Assembly (NCBI GenBank): GCA_037927135.1
Contig: JAXSPP010000005.1
Location: 1-64,000, forward strand
Direction of reading: 5' to 3'
Length of the DNA: 64,000 bases
From: Candidatus Pampinifervens sinense
GTDB taxonomy: Bacteria > Aquificota > Aquificia > Aquificales > Aquificaceae
A model generated the notes under the pieces. It was given only the letters and a program-made list of their open reading frames with translations, searched no databases and was not told the origin of the DNA. The position numbers and the translations under genes are program-made. This document shows, piece by piece, positions 10,195 through 14,579 of this stretch (its first letter is position 1; each line of letters starts with the position of its first letter).

Positions 10195-12006
10195 ATGGAA
10201 TACAAGCCTCAAGAGATAGAAGCCAAGTGGCAAAGGATTTGGGAAGAGCAAGGGCTTTTTAAAGCAAAGGAAGAGGGAAAAAAGATTTATGTTCTTGAAA
10301 TGTTCCCTTATCCCTCTGGCCGTATCCATATGGGCCATGTGAGGAACTACACCATAGGCGACGCCATAGCAAGGTTTTTGAGGTTTAAGGGCTATTCCGT
10401 TTTACATCCCATGGGCTGGGATGCCTTTGGCCTTCCGGCAGAGAACGCAGCCATAAAACATGGAGTGCATCCTGCAGACTGGACCTACGAAAACATAGCC
10501 TATATGAAAAGACAGCTAAAAAGCCTTGGCTTTTCCTACGATTGGGACAGGGAGATAGCCACATGCGACCCAGAATACTACAAGTGGAACCAGTGGATCT
10601 TTTTAAAGTTCCTTGAGCATGGCCTTGCCTACAGGAAGTCTGCTGAAGTAAACTGGTGCCCCAACGATGAGACGGTGCTTGCCAACGAGCAGGTAATAGA
10701 TGGAAGATGTTGGAGGTGTGGAACTCCCATAGTAAGAAAGGAGGTGCCCTCTTGGTATTTAAAGATTACCGCCTACGCAGAAAGACTTTTGGAGGACCTA
10801 AAGGAGCTGGAAGGAAAATGGCCCGAAAGGGTAATAGCCCAGCAGAGAAACTGGATAGGAAGGTCGGAGGGTGCAGTCCTTAAGTTCTTTGTGGAAGATA
10901 CACCCATAGAGGTCTTTACCACAAGGCCGGATACGGTCTTTGGTGCCACCTTTGTGGTCCTGGCCCCAGAACATCCTTTGACCCTAAAACTGGCAAAAAA
11001 CCCAGAGGTGAAGGCCTTTGTAGAAAGGATGAAGCAAAAGTCCACAAGGGAAAGGGGAATAGAGGAAGAGAAGGAAGGAGTCTTTTTAGGCGTTTATGCG
11101 GTAAACCCAGCCACTGGAGAGAAGATACCCGTATGGACGGCCAACTATGTGCTTTATGAGTATGGCACTGGTGCCATTATGTGCGTGCCAGCCCATGACC
11201 AGAGGGACTACGAGTTTGCCGTAAAGTATGGCCTTCCCATAAGACAAGTTATAAAGCCCTACCAGGGAGAGGCGCCAAAGGGCAGGGCCTATGAGGACCC
11301 GGGCATTCTAATAAACTCTGGCCAGTTTAGCGGTATGGACTCCACAGAGGCAAAAAAAGCTATTACCCAGTGGCTAAAAGAGAAGGGCTTGGGAGACTTT
11401 AAGATAACCTACAGGCTAAGGGACTGGAACATATCAAGGCAAAGATATTGGGGCACACCCATACCAGTGGTCTACTGCGACCACTGTGGCATTGTGCCTG
11501 TGCCAGAGGACCAGCTTCCTGTGATGCTTCCCTATAAGGTGGAGATAACGGGCCATGGAAATCCATTGGAAAAGGTGCCCGAGTTTGTCCATACCACATG
11601 CCCCAAGTGTGGAAGGTCTGCAAAAAGGGAAACGGATACCATGGACACCTTCTTTGACTCAAGCTGGTACTTTTTGAGGTTCTGCGACCCCAAAAACTCA
11701 CAAAGACCCTTTGACCCAGAAAGGGTGGAGTTTTGGATGCCCGTGGACCTCTACATAGGTGGCATAGAGCATGCAGTCCTACACCTCCTTTATGCCCGAT
11801 TTTTCCAAAAGTTCCTCTACGACCTTGGACTTGTAAAGGACAAGGAGCCCTTTTTGAGGCTTATAACCCAAGGCATGGTCCTCAAAAGATGGGTAAGCAT
11901 AGAAAGGTTTTTAAAATACTTGGAAGAAAAATACGGTGTGGAAAACCTTGAGGAAAGAGAGCTTGAAGAGCTTGTGGAGCTTATAAAAAGGGATATGAAA
12001 GGGTAA
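10195..12006 (+). CDS. leuS: leucyl-tRNA synthetase alpha subunit (split LeuRS)
   Basis: MFPYPSG-HMGH, CP1 editing domain, GGIEHA; ends after QGMV without KMSKS. Confidence 0.93.
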
Positions 12007-12030
12007 AAGAAGGGGCCCGGGAGGGCCCAG
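12005..12030 (-). terminator. probable intrinsic terminator between converging leuS and lipoprotein genes
   Basis: GGGCCC-N4-GGGCCC hairpin (12013-12028) followed on the - strand by CTTCTTTT. Confidence 0.55.
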
Positions 12031-12035
12031 AGGTT

Positions 12036-12770
12036 TTAATTTATACGCCAAGAGAGGTTTGAACTTGGGGAGTTTTTGGAGACTATGTCTTCTTCATAGG
12101 TAGTGTTACCTTGCTGGTCGGTAGAAAGGGATTTAAATACATATTCTACATAACTCCAACCTACAGGAGCGTTAATATTGTAATTGTATTTGTAGGTATA
12201 AACAATAGGTCCGTTTGGACCTTGATAAGTGCATTTCACTATACTTATACCTGTTATTGTAAATGGTCTGTCGGCATAGATGTAAACCCCTGCTAAAGGT
12301 GTCCCAGATGGCGGAGGGGGATTAGAATTAAATGGATCTATACCACTATCTAACTCCACCTCACCTATTACTACACTGTTATTTCTAAGCATTAAATAAA
12401 GGTAGGCAAATTTTGCATCCGACGGTGATACTGTGGGCGTGCTCTCTCGTACACAGTTAGAATCGGGAGGACTAAAACTAATAGGACTAAGATCGCTTGC
12501 ATTTGGAGTGGGTAGTGTGTAAGTGAAATTGCCTTGATTATCTACGGAGATTTGCCCATAGCAGCTATCAATAGGAGGATTTTCATAAGGGTTCTCACCT
12601 ATAAAAGCATATAAAGTATACCCAGCATTTGGGTTCCAATTTACTATCTGACCACCTATCTGACTAACTGGATTTACGCTTCCACCTCCGCCACCGCAGG
12701 AGCTCAAAAAGGCTCCCAAGACTAAGGCAAAGAGAGCTATGAAGAGCTTAAGGCTAAAAGCCTTTCTCAT
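12036..12770 (-). CDS. orphan lipoprotein, probably surface-exposed (beta-rich, Pro/Ser/Thr/Asn/Tyr-rich)
   Basis: Start ATG 12770 preceded by SD GGGAGGT; signal peptide with lipobox LSS-C followed by GGGGGS linker; composition unlike neighbouring genes. Confidence 0.8.
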   Translation of the reverse strand: MRKAFSLKLFIALFALVLGAFLSSCGGGGGSVNPVSQIGGQIVNWNPNAGYTLYAFIGENPYENPPIDSCYGQISVDNQGNFTYTLPTPNASDLSPISFSPPDSNCVRESTPTVSPSDAKFAYLYLMLRNNSVVIGEVELDSGIDPFNSNPPPPSGTPLAGVYIYADRPFTITGISIVKCTYQGPNGPIVYTYKYNYNINAPVGWSYVEYVFKSLSTDQQGNTTYEEDIVSKNSPSSNLSWRIN

Positions 12771-12790
12771 GGTTCTACCTCCCATAGTTA

Positions 12791-12810
12791 GTTTAATTGC
12801 CTTTATATTA
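12791..12810. repeat. left arm of perfect 20-bp inverted repeat (GTTTAATTGCCTTTATATTA)
   Basis: Exact reverse complement of 13041-13060. Confidence 0.95.
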
Positions 12811-13017
12811 GCAACTGGTTTTGGCGCACAAGTCCCAGGGTGACTATTTACAACAGCCTGAATAGAGTATGATTTTCCGTGGACCTTCTGAATACCAATA
12901 AGGCTTCTTTTAAAAGCGGATCCACGGAACGATACATGAGATCTTGTACGATTTTTAGAATGTATGCTTTTACATGTTTTAGGAGTGTAGTTTGATTGAA
13001 ATCATATTACATGCCTA

Positions 13018-13046
13018 TTGACAATTTATTAAAAATGTATTAATAT
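13018..13046 (+). promoter_or_regulatory. sigma70-type promoter inside the candidate invertible segment
   Basis: TTGACA (13018-13023), 17-nt spacer, TAATAT (13041-13046). Confidence 0.65.
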
Positions 13047-13060
13047 AAAGGCAATTAAAC
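13041..13060. repeat. right arm of perfect 20-bp inverted repeat (TAATATAAAGGCAATTAAAC)
   Basis: Exact reverse complement of 12791-12810. Confidence 0.95.
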
Positions 13061-13077
13061 ATACATTCCTGTCCTTT

Positions 13078-14028
13078 TCACACAATCATAGCAGGATATT
13101 CTTCCTTCCTCAGAGAAAATACCAACACATAAAGGCTTAAAAATATGGCTGTAAGCTGGAAGGCCCAGAAGCTAAGGAGTTTAAGGTAAGCAAAGTATGG
13201 GTTAAATAGTATTAAAAGACTTGATAAATTGTCCAAAAAGGAAAAAAGAAAGACAGAAAAGCCTAAAGTTATAGCCCTTTTCTTTTTAAAGCCCGCAAAG
13301 GGTAAAAGGTGAGCAAGGATAAGGGAAAAAAGGGCCATGGTCAAAAGGTGTGGATAAAAAACCTTAAAAACACCTTGAAAGGTCTTTGGTTTTATAAAAA
13401 GGGAAGGGTTTCCAAGGTAGTAATCCTTTATGCCCTCTATACCAAAGCCCATTTTGGAAAAGAAGTTTAAAAAGTTGGAAAGGAGGAAGAGGAGAAAAAA
13501 TAGGGAAAATAAAAAGGTAAAATACCTTAAGGCCTTTGTTTTGGGTGGCCTGGCATCTTTAAGGACAAGACAGTAGAGATTGTAAAGGATTACAAAAAGT
13601 AAAAGCAATTGATAAACTATAAAGCTAAAAAGCTTTAACCACAAAAGGCTTGGCCATTCAAAGAGGAATATAAGAAGGTCTGCACCTATGTAAAAAAGGG
13701 CAAAAAGGTTAGAAGAGAGAATTATAAAGAGCTTGAAGTTTTGATTTTGTCCAAAGAGGTTAAAGATGGAAAGGAGTGTGAGTAGCATAAGGCCGTGTAG
13801 GAAGAGGTTTATGTGTAGGTCCTCCGATATTTGGGCTATGGATATTTTCTGAGGAAACTCTGGGTCCATAAAGTAGTACCTAAAGAGGCTCTCATAGGAA
13901 AAGCCATACTTGCCATAAAAGCTTATCCAAGAGGCAATCCAAAAAAGAAGGGAAAAAATCAAAAAGGCAAGTACTGCATAGTAAAGGGCTTTGTTCCTCT
14001 TTATATCGGCGGAGATAAAGAACCTCAC
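13078..14028 (-). CDS. polytopic membrane protein with two internally similar halves (His-containing, possibly cytochrome b-like)
   Basis: About 8 TM segments; repeated units (KYGFSYESLFRYYF...H and KMGFGIEGIKDYYL...H); GTG start at 14028 overlaps upstream stop and has a GGAGG SD. Confidence 0.7.
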   Translation of the reverse strand: MRFFISADIKRNKALYYAVLAFLIFSLLFWIASWISFYGKYGFSYESLFRYYFMDPEFPQKISIAQISEDLHINLFLHGLMLLTLLSIFNLFGQNQNFKLFIILSSNLFALFYIGADLLIFLFEWPSLLWLKLFSFIVYQLLLLFVILYNLYCLVLKDARPPKTKALRYFTFLFSLFFLLFLLSNFLNFFSKMGFGIEGIKDYYLGNPSLFIKPKTFQGVFKVFYPHLLTMALFSLILAHLLPFAGFKKKRAITLGFSVFLFSFLDNLSSLLILFNPYFAYLKLLSFWAFQLTAIFLSLYVLVFSLRKEEYPAMIV

Positions 14029-14579
14029 CTTTGGCCTCCAAAGAGCACCTGCCACATGGCTAAGACTTTTCTTGCGTTATCCGTTATGGCCCTTGCGGTA
14101 AGGGTAGCTCCCGTCATGTTGGGAATGTCCCTCTTTAGCCTTATGGGATCCTTGTTTAGTTGCTTTCCTGCAAAGAGCTTGAGCCACCTTTCTTCTGGCA
14201 TATACTCAAGAGGCTCATTAAAGGCCAAAACTTCTATCACATCAATCTTCCCCTCTGGTGTGATGGTGTATAGGACCACCTCAGGATGTGTCCTTACTAT
14301 ATGTGTATCCACATAGGCGTAGGCTATTACAGTTCCTCCTCTTTTGACTATATACCAAGATACAAGCCTTGTGTTTAACTTTACACCAGATAGCTTCTCT
14401 ATAGCAGATTGCTGTTCTGGTGTGAGGACTATATTCTTTACTTCCACTTGGCTGTTTGGATATATCTCCCTAAGGGCCTTCTCGGGCCTATTAAAATCCC
14501 TTGCCGATATACCCGTTCCAAAGGAGAACAGAAAAACAAAAAAACTCAAAAAGAGGCACCACCTACACACTCTCATCAT
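14025..14579 (-). CDS. exported FMN-binding domain protein
   Basis: Signal peptide; flavinylation-type motif MTGATLT (cf. [S/T]GA[S/T] of RnfG/NqrC). Confidence 0.8.
   Translation of the reverse strand: MMRVCRWCLFLSFFVFLFSFGTGISARDFNRPEKALREIYPNSQVEVKNIVLTPEQQSAIEKLSGVKLNTRLVSWYIVKRGGTVIAYAYVDTHIVRTHPEVVLYTITPEGKIDVIEVLAFNEPLEYMPEERWLKLFAGKQLNKDPIRLKRDIPNMTGATLTARAITDNARKVLAMWQVLFGGQR

Follow-up and report, generated by a model that had tools for sequence, protein, structure and literature searches.

A candidate invertible promoter with dif-like ends upstream of a variable lipoprotein gene in Candidatus Pampinifervens sinense

The first 64,000 nucleotides of contig JAXSPP010000005.1 of Candidatus Pampinifervens sinense (Aquificaceae; assembly GCA_037927135.1), here called the window, carry a 270-bp element directly upstream of a predicted lipoprotein gene. 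The element is made up of a perfect 20-bp inverted repeat around 230 bp of DNA containing a promoter-like motif that faces away from that gene, and we consider below whether it may be an invertible promoter. The source genome, G000, comprises 1,546,113 bases in 12 contigs (C1, C2 and so on); other genomes of the family are numbered in the same form (G015 and so on), and loci and contigs are given as L005 and so on. The genes and features at the locus are:

12036-12770, minus strand: lipoprotein gene, 244 amino acids (aa), with a signal peptide, an LSSC lipobox and its ATG at 12770
12791-12810: left arm of the perfect 20-bp inverted repeat
12805-12813, minus strand: extended -10-like motif, TGC+TAATAT, predicted from the sequence; it faces the lipoprotein gene in the present orientation and has no good -35
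12811-13040: interior, 230 bp, 36% G+C, no open reading frame (ORF) with a ribosome-binding site
13018-13046, plus strand: TTGACA-N17-TAATAT, a near-consensus sigma-70 promoter motif (10/12) pointing right, away from the lipoprotein gene
13041-13060: right arm of the repeat
13078-14055, minus strand: membrane-protein gene, 325 aa, upstream of the lipoprotein gene and last of its operon, with its 3' end facing the internal promoter

The two arms are 20 nt long, 100% complementary and 230 nt apart. With up to three mismatches allowed, the 20-mer occurs as these two arms only, both across the 64-kb window (expected 0.01; 0 of 100 shuffles gave two or more) and across the whole of G000, and a 285-nt element query is likewise single-copy in this genome. 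Perfect inverted repeats of at least 16 nt with arms within 2 kb number six in G000, and two of them reach 20 nt, the second (C6:70597-70616/72225-72244) lying around the 16S rRNA (C6:70629-72194), where it is likely a processing stem. An earlier note on this DNA had described a perfect 20-bp repeat around 230 bp of AT-rich DNA with no listed ORF and had proposed a genome-wide search for further copies of the 20-mer; the description is confirmed, and the search returned nothing in G000 beyond the two arms. As in an inverton, the inverted repeats bracket a short intergenic segment. Its three ORFs of 29-38 aa all lack a ribosome-binding site, and small protein genes were rejected as an explanation of the interior on this ground, the identity among relatives that extends to synonymous positions not being suggestive of coding. 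A replication origin was also rejected, as GC skew near the element tracks gene orientation only.

The -10 hexamer of the internal motif, TAATAT, forms the first 6 nt, or inner end, of the right arm, and its TTGACA at 13018 stands exactly 17 nt before it, as the earlier note had read. Across G000, the pattern TTGACA-N16-18-TAnnnT occurs 78 times, 45 of these outside long open frames, and it is a good predictor of promoters in this genome, since 41 of the 45 non-coding copies precede an identifiable gene or feature. In 32 cases a Shine-Dalgarno sequence and an ORF follow within 250 nt, and the others comprise four rRNA promoters, two copies before tRNAs, one before the transfer-messenger RNA (tmRNA) and two beside clustered regularly interspaced short palindromic repeats (CRISPR). 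The promoter of the element is among the four copies left over, one of which is at a contig end. That G000 uses consensus promoters is also apparent from its 16S rRNA, which is preceded within 275 nt by four tandem copies of TTGACA-N16/17-TATAAT, each matching the consensus at 12/12 positions (C6:70260-72244, locus L073). Judged by this usage, the internal TTGACA-N17-TAATAT is probably a real promoter, and this predicted promoter is without a gene to drive in the present orientation. The other orphan strong promoters (C1:84233, C3:81461 and C3:190510) have no comparable flanking inverted repeats. The two consensus promoters beside CRISPR repeats (C1:108006-108034 and C2:113101-113129; Rfam CRISPR-DR43) are nearly alike and are likely the leaders of two arrays.

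Inversion of the interior would place this promoter in front of the lipoprotein gene. From the coordinates, the gap between the -10 and the lipoprotein ATG would then be 34 nt, to be compared with a median of 33 nt over the 32 protein-gene cases in G000, 22 of which fall within 20-42 nt. The putative promoter would therefore face a gene, with one repeat lying in between, in just one of the two orientations, and the geometry that had been predicted for the inverted state, with the promoter directly ahead of the Shine-Dalgarno sequence and ATG, agrees with these spacings. The membrane-protein gene on the other side had been taken for a converging gene. The promoter does run antisense into the 3' end of this gene, but the gene shares the strand of the lipoprotein gene and is located upstream of it.

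The start of the lipoprotein gene at ATG 12770 is supported by the loss in G015 of an alternative ATG at 12785. A Shine-Dalgarno sequence, GGGAGGT, is found at 12783-12777, 6 nt upstream of this ATG and 7 nt from the end of the left arm, and the hexamer ACTTGT stands 17 nt upstream of the left-arm TAATAT. The Shine-Dalgarno sequence, its 7-nt distance from the left arm and the hexamer had been reported in the earlier note, which labelled the present orientation OFF. That note overlooked bases 12813-12811, which read TGC on the minus strand before the left-arm TAATAT and complete the extended -10-like motif. In addition, no terminator is predicted between the lipoprotein gene and the upstream operon (a porin-like gene, an FMN_bind gene and the membrane-protein gene, with a promoter at 16100-16073). 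With an extended -10 facing the gene and no terminator predicted after this operon, the OFF label is doubtful, and expression of the lipoprotein in the present orientation may be low rather than off.

The element is present in four further sequences, namely G015, which is the representative of a different species and the nearest such representative to G000, and the metagenome contigs L035, L036 and L037, and comparison with these shows the lipoprotein gene to be highly variable. The lipoprotein matches no Pfam or NCBIfam family, and its homologues among 5.8 billion proteins are one 61% relative and one protein that shares the signal peptide only. Between relatives whose flanks are 88-96% identical, the mature part of the protein has been exchanged, while the signal peptide up to the lipobox and the following Gly run are retained:

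12040-12690 of the window, and 525-1586 of locus L005: replaced mature region of the lipoprotein gene, replaced also in L035, L036 and L037

The encoded protein is accordingly 244 aa long in the window, 353 aa in G015, 268 aa in L037 and 124 aa in L036, and the L035 version contains a frameshift followed by a region of ~60% similarity. At their C-terminal ends, the G015 and L037 versions are similar to a G000 gene located elsewhere (C4:88841-89233; 63% across 81 aa), a likeness suggesting that domains have been shuffled between surface proteins.

Both arms are embedded in 28-bp sequences that resemble recombination sites of the Xer/dif type. Canonical dif has a 28-bp layout of two 11-bp arms and a 6-bp centre (PMC3025954), and ectopic pairs of such sites can be recombined by a single Xer protein (PMC3025954, PMC3325230), as with the ectopic difH pairs recombined by the single XerH of Helicobacter (PMC3325230). 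The corresponding features of the element, scored against the site of G000 described below, are:

12786-12813, plus strand: left dif-like site, 22/28; outer arm 12786-12796, 8/11; inner arm 12803-12813, 10/11
12797-12802, plus strand: spacer of the left site, TTGCCT, 4/6 to the conserved site
13038-13065, minus strand: right dif-like site, 21/28; outer arm 13065-13055, 7/11; inner arm 13048-13038, 10/11
13054-13049, minus strand: spacer of the right site, TTGCCT

The reference for these scores is G000's own site at C1:150915-150942, a conserved perfect 11-6-11 palindrome obtained in a screen of G000 for 11-N6-8-11 palindromes. This reference was located through its likeness to the arm, and its conservation and gene linkage were then tested independently. 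Over both strands of G000, the only sequences scoring above the arms are the site itself and a second site at C1:79972, and the best background score is 20/28. Scores of at least 21/28 were reached by 0 of 182,608 real AT-rich windows and by 2 of 6 million simulated ones, corresponding to a null P of ~3e-7 per window. An independent BLAST alignment, at 89%, links window 12787-12813 to the G095 copy of the conserved site, and against family variants of the conserved site the arm sites score up to 24/28. The spacer, TTGCCT, is identical in the two arm sites, and the family sites have TTGCTA or TTGCCA. Each end of the element can thus be read as a pair of inverted 11-bp arms separated by 6 bp of spacer, resembling the site that G000 itself carries. 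The consensus arm of the conserved site reads TG-n-TAATAT, an extended -10, which would account both for the -10 box carried by the arms and for the presence of an extended -10 at the left copy (ending ..GCA) and not at the right. A third arm-like copy can be discerned inside the lipoprotein coding sequence at 12518-12545 (16/20 to the arm, 15/28 to the conserved site, spacer TTGCCT), in direct orientation relative to the left arm, and is probably due to chance.

The conserved 28-nt site is present as a single copy, at three or fewer mismatches, in 45 of 90 family genomes and 8 of 12 genera, with 0 control hits. In G000 it lies ~85 nt upstream of a gene for a 210-aa helix-turn-helix (HTH)/coiled-coil protein, which is directly followed by a gene for an Xer-like recombinase. 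The distance from the site to the Xer-like gene is ~0.7 kb in 26 of the 45 genomes; the two are at least 9 kb apart on the same contig in five and on different contigs in 14. The position just upstream of the HTH gene was found in every genome checked, and within this genus the Xer-like gene comes next. The HTH protein has no Pfam family, and in the protein atlas it matches only Aquificota hypothetical proteins and DUF3972. No published description of the site was found in the literature searched.

Recombinase genes were sought with profiles PF00589, PF00239, PF01548 and PF02371 in G000 and with PF00589 and PF00239 in G015. The earlier note had seen no recombinase in the window, and indeed no tyrosine, serine or IS110/Piv-type recombinase gene is found anywhere on its contig. 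G000 as a whole possesses two tyrosine recombinases and no serine or IS110/Piv-type recombinase. One of the two, a 366-aa phage-type integrase at a contig end, is absent from G015. The other is the Xer-like protein (287 aa; G000:C1:151670-152530), which adjoins trmD and is 100% identical in G015. As the two serine recombinases of G015 are IS607 transposases, the Xer-like protein is the only site-specific recombinase common to both genomes. The suggestion that the enzyme is encoded elsewhere has thereby gained a named candidate, through the dif-like arms, but a dedicated invertase did not come to light. G000 has a single FtsK_SpoIIIE match, a weak one that covers part of the profile (29.5 bits; positions 18-64 of 221; C1:121593-121736, in a 615-aa frame). 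The usual FtsK partner of such a recombinase may be absent or strongly diverged in this genome.

That the conserved site may be an Xer site is suggested by its canonical dif layout, by its linkage to the Xer-like gene in this genus and by a paralogous segment of 2.37 kb with 84.5% identity (C1:79977-82341 versus C1:150937-148581). The homology of this segment stops within the conserved site, as it would at a recombination junction. This segment carries the def, SpoVG-like and 68-aa genes that flank the main site, and its inverted paralogue ends at the second dif-like site (C1:79972-79999, 25/28; locus L086, C1:79467-82341). Some properties of the conserved site would suit dimer resolution, in that it is single-copy, occurs in half of the family genomes and marks the end of the paralogue, yet it is linked to the HTH gene and its distance from dnaA is inconstant. 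Either the HTH protein or the Xer-like protein may bind the site, or the two may share it.

Within the element itself, 0 of 230 interior positions vary across the five sequences, and the flanks differ by 4-11%. The whole element contains two substitutions, 12791 G to A in G015 and 12800 C to T in L037, the former shifting the outer arm toward the consensus and raising the left site to 23/28. In the four relatives, uninterrupted identity to the window extends over at most 275, 347, 347 and 292 nt, and the next longest runs, in the flanks, are of 91-158 nt. Such a lack of interior variation looks like constraint, with the caveat that G000 and G015 are mosaic: they have ~86% identity over 392 kb aligned and share 21 perfect runs of at least 275 nt, mostly in ordinary coding DNA. 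Perfectly identical tracts reach 1,064 nt in ordinary genes, in the window (152-25548) as well as genome-wide, and a tract of ~2 kb with five differences covers the HTH and Xer-like genes. Mosaicism of this kind is typical of frequent recombination between hot-spring lineages.

An invertible promoter of the Xer/dif type is the single most likely reading in view of the layout of the element, the quality of its orphan promoter, the spacing that a flip would create, the variability of the lipoprotein and the dif-like arms, whose spacers are identical. It is a plausible but unproven reading, to which we would give slightly less than an even chance. The element would be a short promoter-bearing segment bounded by two dif-like core sites, placed in inverted orientation with identical spacers, on which a tyrosine recombinase would act; recombination between these sites would flip the 230-bp interior. 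Owing to the resemblance of the arms to the conserved 11-6-11 site near its gene, the family's single Xer-like recombinase is the candidate invertase, possibly helped by the adjoining HTH/coiled-coil protein; the conserved site would then be its substrate, and inversion would alter expression. In the orientation seen, TTGACA stands beside the right arm and transcription would run antisense into the end of the upstream operon, leaving the lipoprotein gene with the extended -10 only; in the flipped orientation, TTGACA-N17-TAATAT would direct transcription of the lipoprotein. Such a switch would probably be between high and low expression rather than strictly on or off. A fuller form of this proposal is possible, though we lean against it: that in a thermophilic lineage of the Aquificaceae the one housekeeping Xer-like recombinase, together with copies of the conserved dif-like site, was recruited to turn a 230-bp promoter segment either toward a hypervariable lipoprotein gene or in the antisense direction, with the site arm doubling as the -10. 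The invertible promoter advanced in the earlier note thus gains from the architecture, the promoter, its spacing, the variable gene and the dif-like arms, and loses from the uniform orientation and the missing dedicated invertase discussed next.

Several observations weigh against a functional switch. Both orientations were sought among the five assembled sequences of close relatives (the window, G015, L035, L036 and L037), and only one was found, 5/5 having the same orientation, although assemblies may hide a minority orientation; the comparison of relatives proposed in the earlier note has thus yielded no flipped copy. Profile searches found no dedicated invertase common to G000 and G015, and the Xer-like gene shows no specific correlation with the element, because 85 of 90 family genomes possess it and the majority of these are without the element. 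The outer arms of the two sites are weak (7-8/11). Both substitutions in the element fall in the left arm, and that of L037 is in the spacer, where it would hinder strand exchange. The conserved site is also tied to the HTH gene rather than to the Xer-like gene: three genomes, G090, G075 and G099, have it 85-120 nt upstream of the HTH homologue and their Xer-like gene at another place. In five complete genomes, its distance to dnaA amounts to 1.6, 15, 22, 30 and 44% of the genome length, which is inconsistent as a terminus location. Given this linkage and the varying dnaA distance, the site could be an operator of the HTH protein rather than a terminus dif. Perfect identity of the element is in itself no proof of constraint, since G000 and G015 share many perfect tracts and recent exchange is possible. 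Finally, the lipoprotein gene may be expressed as it stands, through the extended -10 or by read-through.

The serious remaining rivals are a fossil that no longer switches and a static pair of operators. In the first, which we consider unlikely but a strong contender all the same, site-specific insertion placed an island (~12007-13077) between leuS and the membrane-protein gene, and the arms are leftover attachment or pseudo-dif sites; the internal promoter would make only an antisense or insulating transcript, and the lipoprotein would be expressed from the extended -10 or by read-through. An insertion is apparent from the 13 loci examined from other species of the genus. In 11 of these, leuS (window 10195-12006) and the membrane-protein gene abut, from which the lipoprotein gene and element can be seen as a lineage-specific insertion of ~1.07 kb; of the remaining two loci, that of G013 carries an unrelated 285-aa gene with no Pfam family (L007 530-1387) and the other is without leuS. 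This convergent junction is an insertion hot spot. On its right, the island ends at the right dif-like site, which is 12 nt away from the stop codon, and a foreign-looking segment elsewhere in G000, the 2.37-kb paralogue, also ends at a dif-like site. Loss of function would be consistent with the uniform orientation, the spacer mismatch of L037 and a lipoprotein frame that is broken in L035 and short in L036. However, simple integration leaves direct repeats around the whole insert rather than inverted repeats around a 230-bp promoter segment, and no third site was found at the left end of the island (best score 16/28 at 11909, nothing at 12007-12040). Decay would be expected of a fossil, yet the interior is invariant, and the exact promoter geometry would have to be a coincidence.

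In the second rival, which we regard as distinctly improbable, the region is static: each arm overlaps the -10 of an outward promoter and would serve as an operator-like site, bound by the HTH/coiled-coil protein or else by the Xer-like protein in the role of a DNA-binding factor. One factor would control the lipoprotein and antisense promoters, perhaps by looping the 250 bp between them. This would be in keeping with a conserved site that always lies just upstream of the HTH gene, including in the three genomes with the Xer-like gene elsewhere, and with the -10 in both arms; as the consensus arm is itself an extended -10, binding there would affect transcription. On the other hand, a transcription factor needs no identical spacers, and the two copies share all six spacer bases within 20 contiguous bases. 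Ahead of the HTH gene, site and promoter are clear of each other, the -35 following the site at a distance of ~28 nt. The outer arms match poorly, and the paralogous segment that ends at the site points to recombination.

A structured RNA is very improbable. Either the arms would form an RNase III processing stem around a 230-nt RNA released from the transcript of the operon, or the element as a whole would be a folded leader at the 5' end of the lipoprotein mRNA. Its appeal is that the only other perfect 20-nt inverted repeat of G000 is the 16S rRNA stem, that the operon has no predicted terminator ahead of the element, and that at 37 C the minus strand of the interior gives a more stable fold than shuffled sequences do (z -3.6, 0/200). 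It is disfavoured, both as a known family and as a thermostable RNA, by the lack of any Rfam match at E <=1, by a G+C content of 34% in the element and 20% in the arms against a mean of 66% (59-74%) for the 44 tRNAs of G000, and by weak predicted folding energies for the whole 280 nt (-14.4 kcal/mol at 75 C, -5.4 kcal/mol at 85 C). Covariation is unreadable in an invariant interior, and the arm substitutions amount to one wobble and one mismatch on either strand. Scarcely credible is a solo miniature inverted-repeat transposable element (MITE), or an insertion sequence remnant with terminal inverted repeats and an outward promoter, which would suit the size, AT-richness, terminal repeats, lack of ORFs and inserted-island location, but which we reject because the element, far from being the multicopy MITE with target-site duplications against which the earlier note had warned, is single-copy in G000, recurs among 90 family genomes only as the syntenic copy in G015, has no plasmid or phage match and no relatives (in other public genomes and metagenomes the exact 20-mer turns up in unrelated taxa only, and there as a single arm each time), and shows no target-site duplication between its flanks, CATAGTTA and ATACATTC.

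A comparison of the proposed invertible promoter with known systems shows both likenesses and disparities. In E. coli fimS, acted upon by FimB and FimE, and in the invertons of Bacteroides, inverted repeats surround a promoter segment of a few hundred base pairs that controls a surface structure. The invertases of these systems are dedicated ones, either adjacent to the target or global with many targets, and in this they differ from the element, for which none was found in G000 and G015. More broadly, promoter-inversion phase variation is known mainly from host-associated bacteria with dedicated invertases. Invertons in general are covered in a survey of 68,733 genomes, the main text of which, as distinct from its supplements, does not contain the string "Aquific" (PMC11602134). 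We likewise found nothing linking invertons to Aquificae in the literature searched, in line with the earlier note, which knew of none described in this group.

On Acinetobacter plasmids, oppositely oriented pairs of XerC/D sites with identical 6-nt spacers undergo reversible inversion by the housekeeping Xer proteins (PMC9947245). The element is like these pdif pairs in its inverted 28-bp 11-6-11 dif-like sites with identical 6-nt spacers, and unlike them in that they border kilobase gene modules on plasmids and are served by XerC and XerD, whereas here the segment is chromosomal, gene-free and 230 bp long, a single Xer-like protein is encoded and inversion was not seen. In Mycoplasma penetrans, each mpl (P35) lipoprotein gene is under its own invertible promoter, the orientation of which sets expression (review PMC10502178, citing Horino et al. 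2003). There too, a short promoter segment in inverted repeats lies directly upstream of a variable lipoprotein gene; M. penetrans, however, possesses 38 genes and many switches with high-frequency variation shown experimentally, in contrast to one gene and one element here, with arms that mimic a dif-like site of the family. With chromosomal dif and pseudo-dif sites, the conserved Aquificaceae site has in common its 28-bp extent and the better conservation of one arm, and it differs from chromosomal dif in its linkage to the HTH gene, its variable dnaA distance and the weak FtsK_SpoIIIE match in G000.

If the invertible promoter is real, it would be the first reported in Aquificota, and a chromosomal phase switch run by dimer-resolution machinery with no dedicated invertase. 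It would extend surface variation by DNA inversion to hot-spring chemolithotrophs, presumably under phage or grazer pressure, and would illustrate how a genome with a minimal set of recombinases can build a switch from copies of an Xer-type site whose arm reads as a -10. Independently of the switch, a module of a conserved 28-bp site and an HTH gene is now defined in the Aquificaceae, with the site as a candidate dif, operator or both. At the second dif-like site of G000, the paralogue is adjoined by a 474-nt ORF-free, C-rich stretch enclosed in a perfect 17-nt inverted repeat (79467-79483/79958-79974), and the locus as a whole (C1:79467-82341) may be the scar of a site-specific integration.

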